Source: a virus (taxonomy: Duplodnaviria; Heunggongvirae; Uroviricota; Caudoviricetes). Taken from it: 64,000 nt of DNA. The notes beneath the pieces are model-generated. The model saw only the letters and a list, made by a program, of their open reading frames with translations, searched no databases and was not told the origin of the DNA. The stretch lies in the IMG/VR virus record IMGVR_UViG_3300021066_000001; one strand, 5' to 3'. The position numbers were made by a program, and so were the translations under genes. This document shows, in pieces, positions 8,726-36,727 of this stretch (positions within the stretch are counted from its first letter, which is position 1; each line of letters opens with the position of its first letter).

Positions 8726-9769
8726 CTACTTCACCTTGATCTCCACCGCACTTAGGTGCTTGTCGATCTCTCGCTTGAGCGAGGAGGGCGAGCGGCCCGG
8801 AACCTGCACGTAGACATCCTGGCCTTGCTTCCGCGCGACGGCCTTGACGGTGTCGGTGTGAGTATGACCCATGTAGCGGATCATGCAATAAACCCTCTGA
8901 AAGCCGTCGAAAACGAGAGGGCGCTCGTCACCTCGAAAGTACCTGATGTCGAAGAACTGCTCGTAGCCCTCAAGCTCGCGCCGCCACTTGTCGAACAGGC
9001 CGACGACCGCGATCCGAGGTTTCCGGGTGAACTGGAGCTGGGGTACCTTCTCGGCCTTCAAGAAGGTATCGATCGCGGTCGTGAGCGGGCCAGTGTTCAC
9101 CTGGTAGGTTGACGGCTCAGACGGCTTGGGTCGCAACGCCTCGACCTCGGCGCGCAGTTTGGTGACGTCCTCGCGGAGCTCGTCAACGATGATGAGGGTG
9201 TCCCGAAGGATGCGCTCTTGCTCGTTGAGGGTCTCTTGAAAGACGTTACCGAGGCCGCGCAGGTAGTTAGCCATCATCATCTTGATTCCCGACTCGATCA
9301 GCTCGAGCGGAGATGCGGTGCCTTGTAGAGGTGCAGCATCTTTTCTCTCTACAGGTTGCTGCTGCTCTGGCTGTTTGGTCTCTGCGGGCTTCGTCTGCTC
9401 AATGAGGACTCCCTTTGGGGTGCGTGTCCCGTCGTAGATCTCCATGTTGTACTTGTGGCCGCGCTCGTTGAGGATCTTCCTCCAGGCGCCGACATCTTGC
9501 TCGCTCAAGTGCTCGCGGGTGCGGTTGCCGTCGAGCATGCGCTTCGAGACGAGCGACTCTTGTGCCTTGCGAAAGATCACGTGGGAGAAGTGATCTAGCG
9601 GAAACGCGTTCTCCCGAGCGAGCATGTTAAACATCTCGTCCTGGATCTTCTGAACCTCGGAGGGCACCCAAGTGACGCGAGGCTTTCGAGACAGAGAAGC
9701 TCTTCCGCCGGGTGCCCGCGCCACGTTCTCCATCGCTCGCGTCATCGCCAACCCCATCGTCGTCCCCAT
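8726..9769 (-). CDS. Coiled-coil protein with C-terminal DUF2325-like flavodoxin-type domain
   Basis: C-terminal IAVVG...YMGHTHT...SPSSLKREI resembles DUF2325. Confidence 0.55.
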   Translation of the reverse strand: MGTTMGLAMTRAMENVARAPGGRASLSRKPRVTWVPSEVQKIQDEMFNMLARENAFPLDHFSHVIFRKAQESLVSKRMLDGNRTREHLSEQDVGAWRKILNERGHKYNMEIYDGTRTPKGVLIEQTKPAETKQPEQQQPVERKDAAPLQGTASPLELIESGIKMMMANYLRGLGNVFQETLNEQERILRDTLIIVDELREDVTKLRAEVEALRPKPSEPSTYQVNTGPLTTAIDTFLKAEKVPQLQFTRKPRIAVVGLFDKWRRELEGYEQFFDIRYFRGDERPLVFDGFQRVYCMIRYMGHTHTDTVKAVARKQGQDVYVQVPGRSPSSLKREIDKHLSAVEIKVK

Positions 9770-15715: not shown

Positions 15716-16082
15716 CGCCGATCGGTGCATCTCGTGCGACAAGTGCGTCAAGGTGTGCCCCACCAACGTCTTCGACACGACTAAGACCATTCCGATCATC
15801 GCTAGGAAGGAAGATTGCCAAACGTGCTTCATCTGCGAGGTCTATTGTCCTGTCGACGCGATCTACGTAGCCCCATTTACGCATGAGATCGAGGTGGATG
15901 AACAGCAGCTCGCGAGAAACGGAAAGCTAGGAGCTTATCGGAGAGCTCTAGGTTGGAAGCGGGAGGGCGACAACATCGCAGCTAGAGTAGCTAAAGTTCA
16001 AGAGCTGCGAGAAAAAGCTCTAAGCTCTCCGGGCGCTGAGCATCTTGATGAACCTCGCCGGGATCCTACCTCTATAAGCTAG
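15699..16082 (+). CDS. 2x[4Fe-4S] ferredoxin (AprB-like)
   Basis: CISCDKCVKVCP and CQTCFICEVYCP; overlaps the flavoprotein stop. Confidence 0.88.
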   Translation: MIELLSADRCISCDKCVKVCPTNVFDTTKTIPIIARKEDCQTCFICEVYCPVDAIYVAPFTHEIEVDEQQLARNGKLGAYRRALGWKREGDNIAARVAKVQELREKALSSPGAEHLDEPRRDPTSIS

Positions 16083-16934
16083 CGAGCCGAGCTCCTGAAC
16101 CGATCTCTTCTGCATCTCGTGCTCCTTGTCCTTGTTCTTCGTTAGAAAGACCGCGAAGTGATCGTCGGGGCGGAGCTTGGCGGAGTCAGGTACCTCTACC
16201 TTGAGGATGACGTAACCATCATCGTTATCCTTCTCGGCCTGACGCTTGCCGTAGAACTCGGCGACCTTGGCGGTCGTTGCGAGGTAAACGTTCTCCTCAG
16301 AATAGCCCTTGACAAGATCGACGTAGATCTCGCCCGTGTTTCCTGGACGCAGACCCTCTCGAGAGATCTTCTCGTTCCAGCGCTTCTTCGAGGTTCCGTG
16401 ATACATGATTTGGCCGCCGCCTCCCATCATCGTTTGAACGGGGTCGGGGTGCTTGAGGAAGTCGCCCATCTTCATTCCATTGTATGGAGACGGGACACCC
16501 TTGAGCTTGAAGTCGTCCGTGACGCCATACTTGCGGAGGTTCTTGAACGCGGCCTGGATGTCCTTGACGTCGTTGATCGAGCGCTGGCGCATCTTGTCAC
16601 CAACAGACTCCTTGCTCACGGTGATGACCTTGTTCTTGAGGTCGACCTTGCCGCCGAAGTGATTCCAGAGGCTGGAGTCCATCTTGTAGTCCTTGATCTT
16701 GCCGGCCCGCTTAGCCTCGATCTGACCGGTCGCGACGACGCTCGAATAGACCGCATTGTCGGTGCTGTGGAGGATGAGATCACCCTTGTGATAGGTAAAA
16801 TGAAATCCCTCGGAGGGCGCCATGAATTGAGGATCTTCTCTGCGGGGCCAGTAGGCGAGGTCGTCGAAGCGATCCTCGTGCCGATAGTCCTTGACGGACT
16901 TGGCTTCAAGAAGAAATTGGCGGAAGGAGCTCAC
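16020..16934 (-). CDS. Putative virion-packaged ADP-ribosyltransferase-fold protein
   Basis: Leader MSSFRQFLLEA; C-terminal YHGT...GL...VYLAT...YG...ILKVEV resembles ART/Tpt1 folds; TAAATA at 16939-16944. Confidence 0.6.
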   Translation of the reverse strand: MSSFRQFLLEAKSVKDYRHEDRFDDLAYWPRREDPQFMAPSEGFHFTYHKGDLILHSTDNAVYSSVVATGQIEAKRAGKIKDYKMDSSLWNHFGGKVDLKNKVITVSKESVGDKMRQRSINDVKDIQAAFKNLRKYGVTDDFKLKGVPSPYNGMKMGDFLKHPDPVQTMMGGGGQIMYHGTSKKRWNEKISREGLRPGNTGEIYVDLVKGYSEENVYLATTAKVAEFYGKRQAEKDNDDGYVILKVEVPDSAKLRPDDHFAVFLTKNKDKEHEMQKRSVQELGSLAYRGRIPARFIKMLSARRA

Positions 16935-16951: not shown

Positions 16952-17034
16952 TGGTGCCGACGGAGGGATTCGAACCCTCACGAGCCTGGGGTTTAAGCCC
17001 AGTGACTGTCCCAATTTGTCCTAGCCACGCCGGC
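16952..17034 (-). tRNA. Atypical tRNA, anticodon UAA (Leu), 5-nt insertion before the D-arm and short variable loop
   Basis: GCCGGCG/CGTCGGC-ACCA; AC arm CTGGG-CTTAAAC-CCCAG; variable region GCTCGT only. Confidence 0.75.
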
Positions 17035-17055
17035 GTGATTCGAAAGCAGTACCTC

Positions 17056-17274
17056 TGGTAGGGCAGGCGGGAGTCGAACCCGCAAACGCCTCCGACCTGA
17101 GTCATTACTTCAGGCAACGCCGCCGTTGGAAACCTGCTTCCCTGCTAACCCCTTGGCAGGAGCTTCGCCCGGTGCAATCTGTTAACCGTACTCGACGACG
17201 TTCTTGATGGAGACGCCCATTTTACTGGAGCTCGTCCGTGTTTTACAAGTGGCCTTCCTTCGGCCTTCTGCCCC
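17056..17274 (-). ncRNA. 219-nt tRNA-like / mini-tmRNA-like RNA containing ORF MGVSIKNVVEYG* (17182-17220)
   Basis: Acceptor GGGGCAG/CTGCCCT-ACCA, D-like GGCC-GAAGGAA-GGCC, and a T-arm identical to that of the tmRNA. Confidence 0.7.
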
Positions 17275-17353
17275 GGTGGATCGGAAGGGAATCGAACCCT
17301 CGTCGCGTTTCCCTTGGGAAGGGTCCCACGCAGTTGCCAAGAGCTGCCGACCC
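17275..17353 (-). ncRNA. tRNA-like RNA with Ala acceptor (G3-U70, A73) and UUCCCAA (Gly-type) loop
   Basis: GGGTCGG/CCGATCC-ACC; GAC-GAGGG-TTCGATT-CCCTT; arm GCGT..CCC-TTCCCAA-GGG..ACGC. Confidence 0.7.
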
Positions 17354-17360
17354 AGAACCA

Positions 17361-17476
17361 CACATCACCTAGCCGGTTTGGCGCGAGCGGGTGGGCTACA
17401 ACCGGAAATGCCACCGAGGAATCTCACCTCGGCTGCGCCCAGACGAGCTGGGACGACTCGCCACCATCGTGATGTG
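17361..17476 (-). ncRNA. Candidate structured spacer RNA closed by an 8-9 bp terminal stem
   Basis: CACATCAC/GTGATGTG termini; internal hairpins CCCAG/CTGGG and CCGAGG-TGAGATT-CCTCGG. Confidence 0.4.
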
Positions 17477-17478
17477 CT

Positions 17479-17553
17479 TGGCAAGGGATGAGGGAATCGA
17501 ACCCCCGACTCGGAGTTTGGAGCTCCGCGTAGTTACCACTACACCAATCCCCT
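17479..17553 (-). tRNA. tRNA-Trp(CCA)
   Basis: AC arm CGGAG-CTCCAAA-CTCCG, G73, encoded CCA. Confidence 0.93.
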
Positions 17554-17615
17554 ACTGAACTGCTCGGTACCCTTCGCCCGTTGCGGTACCGATGTATTTT
17601 AGCACTGGACACAGC

Positions 17616-17689
17616 TGGCGGGTCGTCAAGGAATCGAACCCTGACTAAGAGTTTTGGAGGCTCCTGTGCTGCCACTACACCAACGACCC
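17616..17689 (-). tRNA. tRNA-Trp(CCA), second copy
   Basis: GGGTCGT/ACGACCC-GCCA; loop CTCCAAA. Confidence 0.9.
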
Positions 17690-17712
17690 GAGATAAGACG
17701 ATGCGGCCAGTA

Positions 17713-17800
17713 CTTTCTGAGATAGGACTCGAACCTACAATTCCACCTACTGGCAGGCAGCGCGACATGACTCGCACAGGGATTAACCCAGGGATTGCCC
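17713..17800 (-). pseudogene. Degenerate tRNA-like element (T-arm intact, CAT in a 6-nt loop, no good acceptor)
   Basis: GTAGG-TTCGAGT-CCTAT T-arm, GCGA-GTCATG-TCGC hairpin and a variable hairpin; boundaries approximate. Confidence 0.35.
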
Positions 17801-17820
17801 ATTCCCCCACTCATCCGTCT

Positions 17821-17907
17821 TGGTGCCTACGGAGGGACTCGAACCCTCAATCCCGTTAGGGAACAACGCTCTCAACGTTGCGCGTATACCAGTTCCGCCA
17901 CGCAGGC
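17821..17907 (-). tRNA. tRNA-Leu(GAG)
   Basis: Canonical class II cloverleaf, CAACG-TTGAGAG-CGTTG, CCA. Confidence 0.95.
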
Positions 17908-17913
17908 AAGGTA

Positions 17914-18024
17914 GAGCAAGGTGAGGGAATTCCCTGCTAGGATCCTCGTTACCGCGATTCGATGCGTAGCCCGGTAGCAGCCGGTCACGCTCTTTGGTTC
18001 TCGCCGCGAAATTTCACCTTGCTC
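17914..18024 (-). ncRNA. Candidate structured spacer RNA closed by an 11-bp terminal stem
   Basis: GAGCAAGGTGA/TCACCTTGCTC perfect inverted repeat filling the gap between two tRNAs. Confidence 0.45.
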
Positions 18025-18120
18025 TGGCGGAGAGCGGCGGTCTCGATCCGCATCCAAGAGCTCGCGCTCCCAGACGATCCGCTTAGCAGGCGGTCCCAGG
18101 GCCTCCCCGGTTCACTCTCC
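18025..18120 (-). tRNA. tRNA-Ser(GCU), 8/4 acceptor/T-stem type
   Basis: GGAGAGTG/CGCTCTCC (8 bp), T-stem GCGG/CCGC (4 bp), loop CTGCTAA, G73. Confidence 0.88.
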
Positions 18121-18491
18121 ATCGTCAGTGCCGTCGAACATCGCCATCCTACCTCCGTCGGCGATCGTCGCTCTCATCTTCTCGACACAGTCACGAACGG
18201 CTGCTCTGACCGTTCGTCCGAACCCGACTACCTCGACGCTTCTCGTTTTGTTCGGAAATCCCTCAGCTGGTGCTGGAACTCGAGGGTGTCCAAAGACACC
18301 TCCAGTACTCCCCACCCAGAAAGCTTGAGGGGAGCGGATGCAACCTGTACTTGTTGATCGCGTTCAGCAGCTCGGTGTCGTTCATGATAAAGGCTCCTAA
18401 GTAGAGGTCGCTCGTCTGATGCAGCATGCAAAAGCTACGTCAAAAAGGTCATGAGTCTCCAAACGCCGTTGCCAGCGCCTGCTTGCTTCCT

Positions 18492-18579
18492 TGGCGGATG
18501 ACGGAGGTCCCGACCCCCAGCCCGTTTCCGAGTCCATCTGCTTTCGAGGCAGCGCTAGTCCCTGACTAGTTCGTCATCC
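18492..18579 (-). tRNA. tRNA-Ser(CGA), 8/4 type
   Basis: GGATGACG/CGTCATCC, GGGG/CCTC, loop CTCGAAA. Confidence 0.88.
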
Positions 18580-18752
18580 TTGGGTTCGATCCGGGTGACG
18601 ATGATCTCGTCATCGCTCACCCTCCTCGTCCTGATCGTGATTCCTCTGTTTCGAGCGATCGCGTGGTACCAGGACGAGTACTTCACCCTGCGAGACTCGT
18701 TTACCTGGATGCCCTGGATCAGCTCACCTGCTTCTCTAGACTTGAGGTTCAT
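18555..18752 (-). CDS. Small hypothetical protein (MNLKSREAGE...) inside the tRNA array
   Basis: AAGGAG RBS; the stop lies inside tRNA-Ser(CGA). Confidence 0.55.
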   Translation of the reverse strand: MNLKSREAGELIQGIQVNESRRVKYSSWYHAIARNRGITIRTRRVSDDEIIVTRIEPKDDELVRD

Positions 18753-18763
18753 GTCGTCTCCTT

Positions 18764-18847
18764 TGGTGCGAGCGGTGGGAGTCGAACCCACATACCTTGC
18801 GGCACGTGCTCCTAAGGCACGTGTGTATACCATTCCACCACGCTCGC
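18764..18847 (-). tRNA. tRNA-Leu(UAG)
   Basis: CGTGC-CTTAGGA-GCACG; canonical. Confidence 0.95.
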
Positions 18848-18851
18848 ATAC

Positions 18852-18944
18852 TGGCGGAAGACGGAGGAGATGATCCCCAATCACGGGTTGGCCGCGATCC
18901 CATCGCTTTCAAGGCGAGTCCGAGACCTTCTCGGTTCGTCTTCC
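18852..18944 (-). tRNA. tRNA-Ser(UGA), 8/4 type
   Basis: GGAAGACG/CGTCTTCC, GGGG-ATCATCT-CCTC, loop CTTGAAA. Confidence 0.88.
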
Positions 18945-18948
18945 ATGC

Positions 18949-19031
18949 TGGTCCCCTCGCTCGGATTCGAACCGAGAAAAGCCTAGACTCTCGATCTAGT
19001 AGGTGTACCAATTTCCATTTGCCACGAGGGG
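18949..19031 (-). tRNA. Atypical tRNA, anticodon GAG (Leu), insertion before the D-arm, short variable loop, C33
   Basis: CCCCTCG/CGAGGGG-ACCA; CTAGA-TCGAGAG-TCTAG; variable region GCTTTT. Confidence 0.75.
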
Positions 19032-19039
19032 TCTCGTGT

Positions 19040-19128
19040 TGGTGCCCTCGGTCGGAGTCGAACCGACAATACGCTTTCGCGGCTCCAGGTTCTGAGCCTG
19101 GCAACTTTACCAATTTGTCCACGAGGGC
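19040..19128 (-). tRNA. tRNA-Leu(CAG)
   Basis: CCAGG-CTCAGAA-CCTGG; canonical. Confidence 0.95.
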
Positions 19129-19146
19129 AGCGTTACTTCTACAACT

Positions 19147-19236
19147 TGGAGGAGAGCGGCGGTCCCGACCCGCGACCAGCTTACGCCAGCCCGACTGCTT
19201 TCCAGGCAGTGCCACACCCCGTGCGGTTCACTCTCC
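19147..19236 (-). tRNA. tRNA-Ser(GGA), 8/4 type, U73
   Basis: GGAGAGTG/CGCTCTCC-TCCA; ACTGC-CTGGAAA-GCAGT. Confidence 0.88.
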
Positions 19237-19240
19237 AATT

Positions 19241-19332
19241 TGGTGGGTCTGGGGTAGAATCGAACTCCGTGCCTCGCTGAGGAAGAGCTTTACAGGCTCC
19301 TGACAGGACCACCCGTCCTTATGACCAGACCC
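19241..19332 (-). tRNA. Atypical tRNA-Tyr(GUA) with 8-bp acceptor and remodelled D-arm
   Basis: GGGTCTGG/CCAGACCC-ACCA; D hairpin AGGAC-GGGTG-GTCCT; loop CTGTAAA; imperfect T-stem. Confidence 0.7.
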
Positions 19333-19337
19333 AATGT

Positions 19338-19425
19338 TGGTGGATGGTGATGGATTTGAACCACCGAAGCCCGTCAGGGCGCCTGGTTTACAGCCAGGTG
19401 CAATTGGCCACTCTGCCAACCATCC
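19338..19425 (-). tRNA. tRNA-Tyr(GUA)
   Basis: CCTGG-CTGTAAA-CCAGG; canonical. Confidence 0.95.
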
Positions 19426-19426
19426 T

Positions 19427-19513
19427 TGGTGCCAGACCCCGGGCTCGAACCGGGACACCCTCACGGGTACTAATTTTTGAGACTAGCGCGTCTGCCGATT
19501 CCGCCAGTCTGGC
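19427..19513 (-). tRNA. tRNA-Leu(CAA)
   Basis: CTAGT-CTCAAAA-ATTAG; canonical. Confidence 0.95.
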
Positions 19514-19530
19514 AAGGTACTGCTTCCGAA

Positions 19531-19582
19531 TTGTAAAAGAGCGCGTTGCAAAAACGACTAGGGCCTCACTTGGAGGCCCTAG
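19531..19582 (-). promoter_or_regulatory. boxB-like hairpin (19558-19582) and boxA-like antitermination element GCTCTTTTACAA (19531-19542)
   Basis: 10-bp hairpin CTAGGGCCTC/GAGGCCCTAG followed by a near match to the rrn boxA TGCTCTTTAACA. Confidence 0.6.
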
Positions 19583-19695
19583 GTCTAGAATCTGTCGACT
19601 TTTCGTCAGATCACATAGAGACTAGGGCCTCTCCCCGAGATACGAGGACAGGGACCAGCTCAAGCTAAGTGATAGGACGTTCGTCATGGTATGAT

Positions 19696-19724
19696 ACTAT
19701 ATATTAGTTCTCGACGGAAGTAAA
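19696..19724 (-). promoter_or_regulatory. Early promoter of the tRNA array, TTTACT-N17-TATAGT
   Basis: Consensus match with 17-nt spacer. Confidence 0.7.
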
Positions 19725-36688: not shown

Positions 36689-36727
36689 TGAGCTATTTTA
36701 TCAGGAAACTGAGCTCAAGTAAAATCG

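Follow-up and report, generated by a model that had tools for sequence, protein, structure and literature searches.

A putative boxA and a conserved leader-trailer RNA helix enclose a tRNA array behind a predicted codon-matched attenuator in a giant T4-like phage

Introduction

Can a phage place its tRNA genes within the framework that bacteria use for ribosomal RNA (rRNA)? The question is raised by an array of tRNA and tRNA-like genes at positions 17056-19513 of a 64,000-nucleotide stretch (the window) of IMG/VR virus record IMGVR_UViG_3300021066_000001. An initial annotation had described this array as built like an rRNA operon (rrn), with a boxB-boxA leader and a 16-bp long-range stem that clamps the genes. 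The phage carrying the window is uncultivated, T4-like and giant (its own sequence is 395,730 bp long, with a GC content of ~58%), and it possesses rIIA and PrkA-YeaH-SpoVR genes. Here, we examine the locus through its sequences, alternative folds, codon matching, conservation and covariation. The locus is a new variant of known devices, namely an rrn-type boxA with its helix and a leader-peptide attenuator. In the literature, we found phage tRNA genes linked neither to a boxA or a leader-trailer helix nor to leader-peptide attenuation.

Results

A long-range helix brackets the RNA array of the window

The elements bracketing the array, and the gene that follows them, are as follows.

19514..19531, minus strand: 5' strand of the leader-trailer helix (inverted-repeat search, fold, alignment with relatives, pair probabilities)
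17056..19513, minus strand: enclosed RNA array (ARAGORN and Rfam)
17038..17055, minus strand: 3' strand of the leader-trailer helix (inverted-repeat search, fold, alignment with relatives, pair probabilities)
16952..17034, minus strand: aberrant Leu(UAA)-like tRNA gene outside the clamp (Rfam and ARAGORN)

The array contains tRNA genes for Leu-CAA, Tyr-GTA, Ser-GGA, Leu-CAG, Ser-TGA, Leu-TAG, Ser-CGA, Ser-GCT and Leu-GAG and two for Trp, together with several aberrant tRNA-like genes and a 219-nt gene resembling transfer-messenger RNA (tmRNA). The complementarity first described between 19530-19515 and 17054-17039 was confirmed, with all 16 positions paired, one of them as G-U. Each of these strands lies 1 nt from a gene end as claimed: the first base of tRNA-Leu(CAA) is 19513, and 17056 is the last base of the CCA in the tmRNA-like gene. 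Addition of the A19531-T17038 pair and the wobble pair T19514-G17055 extends the helix to 18 bp. This 18-bp helix, with a duplex energy of -28.7 kcal/mol, is part of the minimum free energy (MFE) fold of the complete 2751-nt transcript and is the strongest inverted repeat of the region; 16 of its pairs have probabilities of 0.94-1.0 in the ensemble of the read-through transcript. The clamp had also been taken to define the mini-tmRNA as the terminal gene of the array. This is not the case, as the Leu(UAA)-like gene (17034-16952) comes after it, beginning 3 nt past the helix (4 nt past the 16-nt strand originally described), and the next protein gene starts at 16934. With the Rfam tRNA model, this Leu(UAA)-like gene scores 28.2 bits against a gathering score of 29, and it is called by ARAGORN only at a relaxed threshold. 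A circular precursor of the array, which had been proposed as a possibility, is not supported.

When the 2751-nt transcript was shuffled with dinucleotides preserved, 3 of 60 shuffles contained a helix at least as strong at some position (p ~0.05), which counts against reading the pairing as functional. The window helix by itself is thus marginal against chance, and it is the comparison with relatives that decides.

The helix is fused to boxA and co-varies in related phages

Among cultured phages, we found no relative of the array or of its neighbour genes and no close relative of the window phage. The gene adjoining the array (16020-16934) has relatives at 40-56% identity, none of them beside tRNA genes, and an IMG/VR search with the window flavoprotein gene and a 28-mer from tRNA-Leu gave no match. 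Relatives were reached by a PrkA search of IMG/VR (50-59% identity, same broad clade) and by a conserved leader-peptide motif, the latter leading to the phage termed G011. G011 (336,116 bp, 98% complete) and G001 (349,660 bp, 97% complete, 49 tRNA genes) are distantly related IMG/VR phages, and two further relatives, G002 and G007, are fragments. The comparison makes use of an element that overlaps the start of the 5' strand in the window.

19531..19542, minus strand: boxA, GCTCTTTTACAA (sole exact pattern match in 64 kb)

In G001, a perfect boxA heads an array with Leu, Ser and Tyr tRNAs and is part of the only copy in that genome of the extended motif, which consists of boxA plus the next seven bases. 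A run of 14 nt starting inside this boxA pairs with a strand 11 nt past the last array tRNA, 9.46 kb downstream. The equivalent array of G011 has a boxA variant 83 nt ahead of its first tRNA, with no second such site in the genome. Here, 18 nt starting inside boxA pair with a strand 8.4 kb downstream, directly after a GIY-YIG endonuclease gene that trails the last tRNA. The extended motif is absent from the G002 and G007 fragments.

When the three 5' strands are aligned by boxA, positions 12-24 are paired in the window, G001 and G011 (39 of 39 cells, for 13 positions), with no pair broken. The pair at position 15 is C-G, T-A and C-G across the three phages. Positions 20-24 consist of three unrelated sequences, each with its own complement, so that both sides differ from phage to phage. 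Four wobble pairs occur, each of them G-U on the sense strand. The conserved feature is that the helix is joined to boxA; nearness to tRNA ends is not kept. A search for compensatory changes in related phages had been proposed as a check on the pairing, and such changes were found in both G001 and G011. Because positions 12-24 pair throughout while positions 20-24 change on both sides, the leader-trailer pairing is identified, at the level of sequence comparison, as a predicted conserved RNA helix and not a protein-binding inverted repeat. The earlier preference for pairing at the RNA level is borne out by the same comparison, as the distal halves diverge yet stay complementary and the wobbles are G-U on the sense strand.

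The two strands might instead form a DNA-level inverted repeat with no role in RNA, serving as the sites of an array-inverting recombinase or the ends of a mobile tRNA cassette, or surviving as the relic of a rearrangement. Consistent with this, the 2.46-kb block is discrete and has at its ends a 17-nt inverted repeat with a single mismatch, tRNA arrays move between genomes, and the G011 array has a homing endonuclease gene at its end. However, protein-binding sites would keep their sequence, whereas the distal halves of the repeat are wholly different in the three phages. The four non-Watson-Crick pairs are all G-U in the transcript, and the opposite strand would have A-C at these places; bacterial 23S leaders show the same exact fusion of the 5' strand to boxA; no target-site duplications occur at the flanks; and the repeats span 2.5, 8.4 and 9.5 kb. 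No recombinase turned up among the neighbouring window genes that were scanned. We consider a purely DNA-level origin very unlikely. An invertible segment and transposon ends in particular were rejected, as the repeat sequence is not conserved among the phages and neither a flank duplication nor a recombinase in the scanned neighbours was seen.

The GIY-YIG homing-endonuclease-like open reading frame (ORF) of G011 (locus L227, reverse complement [rc] 9134-9748) interrupts the stretch from the last tRNA to the 3' helix strand. A parallel is segB in the tRNA cluster of T4.

The 12-mer ahead of the array resembles the boxA of bacterial 16S-23S spacers

The boxA consensus is GYTCTTTAANA, with C4 and T6 as intact positions (PMC5725501). 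This consensus is gamma-proteobacterial. The window 12-mer (19542-19531) departs from it only at position 8, where T replaces A, and agrees at 10 of 11 positions with C4 and T6 retained. The agreement is 11/11 in G001 and 10/11 in G011. In the window, boxA lies 154 nt past the -10 element of the promoter described below, 17 nt ahead of the first tRNA and downstream of the attenuator terminator. The 349-kb and 336-kb relatives each have one copy, placed where the array begins. The other boxA-like 12-mers in the window carry one mismatch, and one examined case is inside a coding region. The 12-mer had been named boxA in the initial annotation. Its near-consensus sequence, its retention at the array head in relatives and its near identity to the boxA of the rrn internal transcribed spacer (ITS) support this assignment, and with it a putative NusB-NusE site.

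In an alternative explanation, the 12-mer is part of a second promoter, as its last bases together with the next base read TACAAT, and the complementarity is due to chance. The sequence TACAATTCG occurs also at the -10 element of the tmRNA promoter, and the shuffle value of p ~0.05 leaves room for a chance helix. By contrast, no -35 element is present at 16-18 nt, and the 11 early promoters of this phage all possess TTTACT. The homologous bases in G001 are AACAAT, which is not a -10 element, beside a perfect boxA, and the helix recurs in register in two further genomes. We rejected this reading of the 12-mer on account of the missing -35 element and of the relatives, which keep no -10 element there, and attach hardly any credence to it.

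BoxA with the bases that follow it points to a bacterial counterpart. The extended motif was found at 67 places in species-representative genomes, mostly of beta- and gamma-proteobacteria. Nine of the ten loci sent to Rfam were rRNA operons with the motif in the 16S-23S spacer, and the tenth contained tRNA only. The motif lies downstream of any spacer tRNA in view, and 110-180 nt separate it from 23S. In Gallaecimonas, Thiomonas and a Burkholderiales metagenome-assembled genome, the bases right after boxA pair with the 23S trailer and form the base of the 23S leader-trailer helix. The window leader is identical to rrn spacers at up to 24 of 29 positions, and this match to beta- and gamma-proteobacterial spacers points to a beta- or gamma-proteobacterial host.

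These comparisons support a model in which the phage array would occupy the place of 23S rRNA in the host operon, the 23S frame being the closest model. Both the phages and the beta/gamma rrn operons have near-identical boxA and following bases, a 5' strand that begins inside or directly after boxA, and its complement just beyond the enclosed RNA. They differ in that the phage cargo is a tRNA and tRNA-like block of 2.5-9.5 kb rather than 23S rRNA, in that this block is downstream of an attenuator, and in that the phage helix is a single stem of 14-18 bp whereas the rrn helix is long and composite.

In rrn operons, boxA is held on the polymerase by NusB, so that the 5' strand is kept at the RNA exit until the trailer emerges; the structure of the leader-trailer helix outweighs its sequence, and RNase III cuts inside it (PMC10250234). 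Compared with the E. coli 16S helix described in that study, the phage locus has the same order of promoter, boxA, 5' strand, cargo and 3' strand. In both, the helix co-varies while boxA is conserved, and the model of boxA-anchored looping would fit equally. By contrast, the phage locus has no boxC, a boxA-helix spacing of 0 nt (18-19 nt in E. coli), a shorter helix and no ribosome assembly.

Lambda nut sites and the suhB leader also place boxA on a non-rRNA transcript for Nus recruitment (PMC5725501), as we infer for the window phage. Lambda, however, needs N and a boxB hairpin, neither of which is evident in the window phage, and the boxA of suhB represses rather than protects (PMC5725501). 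Unlike the boxA of the window phage, those of lambda nut and suhB are not coupled to a long-range helix.

The tRNA cluster of T4 consists of co-transcribed tRNAs and small stable RNAs that are processed by host nucleases, and it has been invaded by a GIY-YIG endonuclease gene. The window phage is likewise a T4-like phage with a block of tRNA and small stable RNA genes, and invasion by a GIY-YIG gene has its match in G011. To our knowledge, no boxA, bracketing helix or leader-peptide attenuator has been described for the T4 tRNA cluster.

Cultured phages frequently carry a boxA followed by the bases seen in the window, mostly without annotation. Examples occur near the left end of many T7-like phages of Pseudomonas, Erwinia and Klebsiella, and others in Vibrio phages. 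An unrelated family of uncultivated phages (L044, L046, L053, L074, L075, L080, L085) has a sigma-70-like promoter followed by a perfect boxA with the same following bases as the window, and a tRNA-Gln within 10 nt heads an array of 23-25 tRNAs (complete loci). Separately, both RNA clusters of the window have the heptamer GCAGTAC shortly ahead of their first RNA gene (2627-2633 and 19517-19523, minus strand). The heptamer, which is shared with the tmRNA leader, also follows the attenuator terminator in G002. Its enrichment in the window is mild (9 sites, 3.85 expected).

A predicted codon-matched attenuator precedes boxA

The region between the promoter and boxA contains the following features.

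19696..19724, minus strand: phage early promoter (TTTACT, 17 nt, TATAGT), one of 11 window sites (consensus scan)
19622..19687, minus strand: leaderless 21-codon leader ORF, including the TAG stop (codon matching to the array)
19619..19631, minus strand: region 2, a first copy of the 3' arm of the terminator, overlapping the leader stop (RNAfold)
19550..19582, minus strand: intrinsic terminator of the attenuator, previously called boxB (terminator scan)

The early promoter occurs at 11 sites in the window against 0.17 expected by chance, all of them on the minus strand. The ATG of the leader ORF is only 8 nt past the -10 element. At four other early promoters (-10 elements ending at 36695, 39610, 42611 and 48752, minus strand), an ATG likewise lies at +6 to +9 and opens an ORF of 93-215 codons. 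Leaderless mRNAs seem to be a regular feature of early genes in the window phage.

The leader ORF contains 5 Leu, 6 Ser, 1 Trp and 1 Tyr codons. Array tRNAs match 13 of the 20 codons, with none of the 10 anticodon classes left out; under the codon usage of the phage, the probabilities are ~5e-7 for coverage and 1.3e-5 for count. It ranks first among the 474 short ATG ORFs in the window. The sole Leu codon missing from it is TTA, and the Leu(UAA)-like gene lies outside the clamp.

The 10-bp hairpin claimed upstream of boxA is present (19582-19558, with a 5-nt loop) and is followed by a U-tract; its identity as boxB did not stand. The stop codon of the leader (19624-19622) is inside region 2, and region 2 can form an antiterminator with 19582-19573. 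Folding with RNAfold in the absence of region 1 gave this 2:3 pairing at -35.5 kcal/mol and no terminator, whereas the MFE structure of the complete leader combines a 1:2 pairing with the terminator. The hairpin is predicted to be an attenuator terminator rather than a boxB because of its U-tract and its competition with the upstream 3'-arm copy that overlaps the stop codon. For these reasons, namely the U-tract and the alternation with an antiterminator tied to the leader ORF, an rrn or lambda boxB was ruled out. Judged from sequence and predicted folding, the hairpin and the leader ORF together are an attenuator of the trp type. The wider claim that host rRNA machinery is recruited loses its boxB part, while the rrn-like layout of boxA and a co-varying leader-trailer helix is retained.

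The same attenuator is found at five arrays in G001, G002, G007 and G011, with each leader spelled in the amino acids of its own array. The leaders are of two kinds, one composed of Asn, Phe, Thr, Lys, Arg, Glu, His, Trp, Gln, Asp and Ile, and the other of Ala, Leu, Thr, Val, Cys, Pro, Gly, Ser and Tyr. At the class-I arrays of the relatives, the attenuators are present with no boxA behind them.

Leaders of the trpL, ilvGMEDA and thr type possess a short ORF in which regulatory codons are frequent, 1:2, 2:3 and 3:4 pairings that exclude one another, and a U-tract terminator before the genes. The window shares with these amino-acid operon attenuators the codon-rich short ORF, the exclusive pairings and the U-tract terminator. 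It differs from them in the following: 1) it controls tRNA genes; 2) its ORF has about one codon per isoacceptor; 3) its mRNA is leaderless; and 4) a boxA lies behind it.

Several further observations concern these leaders. Among the tRNA-like genes of the array, ARAGORN makes weak calls of Gly(CCC) and Thr(CGU), and the cognate codons GGG and ACG are present in the leader ORF. An ORF of 39 codons within the array (18266-18385, minus strand), flanked by Ser(CGA) and Ser(GCU), has codons for 9 of the 10 anticodon classes and ranks second among the 474 short window ORFs, with no terminator seen behind it. G001 has two adjacent tRNAs with a CUA anticodon (amber suppressor type) beside the phage tmRNA (L038 rc 1732-1890), and the leader ORF of the window stops with TAG. 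Between attenuator and boxA-helix, both G001 (L035 rc 1270-1760) and G011 (L227 rc 1020-1210) contain 2-3 tandem promoter-like modules. In each phage, a small hairpin and another boxA-like sequence (GTTCTTTAAAA or GCTCTTTCAAAA) come after at least one module. These tandem modules resemble the tandem promoters and boxB-boxA of rrn leaders.

Discussion

A proposed pathway for expression of the array

The array is probably a single early transcription unit, in which promoter and leader ORF, attenuator, boxA and leader-trailer helix operate in series. The early promoter would start a leaderless mRNA whose 21-codon test ORF offers a codon for each tRNA species of the array. A ribosome stalling on these test codons would let region 2 pair with the 5' arm of the terminator, leading to read-through by the polymerase, whereas fast translation to the stop codon within region 2 would allow the terminator to form. 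As boxA comes after the terminator, only polymerases that pass the switch would be converted. The read-through polymerase would transcribe a boxA copied from, or mimicking, the boxA of the host rrn spacer, and host NusB and NusE (S10) with their partners may load there to give a Rho-resistant polymerase across 2.5 kb of untranslated RNA. With boxA held on the polymerase, the 5' strand would be kept at the RNA exit until the trailer appears, as proposed for rrn. The helix would then close the array into a single domain, which host RNase III most likely cuts; the cut would free the array from the attenuator leader and from downstream RNA, and RNase P and 3' nucleases would subsequently release the individual RNAs. 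As RNase III and NusB genes were not found in G001 and G002, the pathway would have to rely on host factors. The steps that we infer are the loading of Nus factors, cleavage by RNase III and the regulatory output.

Whether the helix is a substrate for RNase III is the step at which a further alternative arises. Helix and boxA could be genuine RNA elements of another function, with the helix acting as an end clamp against RNase E and exonucleases, or triggering release of the boxA-Nus complex where the unit ends. The helices of the window, G001 and G011 measure 18, 14 and 18 bp. They are shorter than the 25-40 bp of the enterobacterial 16S helix and the 27 bp of the E. coli 23S helix, and this shortfall relative to the 16S helix makes RNase III cleavage uncertain. 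A role apart from RNase III is consistent with a length of only 14-18 bp and with the position of the strands in relatives, away from RNA gene ends. It also has a precedent in the leader-trailer helix of E. coli 16S, which serves assembly independently of RNase III (PMC10250234). By contrast, all well-studied leader-trailer helices are RNase III substrates, and the window helix is within 1 nt of both gene ends, as would fit a processing site. We judge such an RNase III-independent role rather unlikely and retain cleavage by host RNase III in the proposed pathway.

A number of observations, in addition to the shuffle result, weigh against the proposal as a whole: 1) in the two relatives, ~250 and ~75 nt separate the 5' strand from the first tRNA, so that adjacency to RNA gene ends is not conserved; 2) the helix of 14-18 bp in three phages is below the length of its enterobacterial 16S counterpart; 3) boxA has an off-consensus base both in the window (position 8) and in G011 (position 5); 4) one tRNA-like gene (17034-16952) is outside the clamp; 5) in the uncultivated family typified by L044, boxA directly before a tRNA array is without a partner strand in the loci examined; and 6) the design is seen in only three genomes, which are mutually related, so that some shared features are inherited and not independent.

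In its full form, the proposal states that this clade moved the 23S frame of the host onto tRNA arrays and set it behind a codon-sampling leader, creating a self-regulating, Rho-proof and self-excising module of tRNA supply. We regard the chances of this full form as about even. If it is true, the attenuator would open when tRNAs run short, for example through depletion of Leu, Ser and Tyr tRNAs by host or defence nucleases, and the boxA-loaded polymerase would carry the 5' strand until the trailer closes the helix, releasing the whole array.

Implications

BoxA and leader-trailer helices are regarded as devices of ribosome biogenesis, and here the same pair brackets tRNA arrays of 2.5-9.5 kb in three giant phages. 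A boxA-anchored helix with a different cargo constitutes a natural test, free of ribosome assembly, of the model in which the polymerase acts as a chaperone. The near identity to beta- and gamma-proteobacterial spacers provides a clue to the host of an uncultivated phage. Together with its codon-matched attenuator, the locus offers a testable account of how phage tRNA genes are controlled, a subject with little mechanistic data so far. More broadly, rrn antitermination combined with RNA looping may be of general use in making long untranslated RNA operons, and ~30 nt would be enough for a phage to hijack it.

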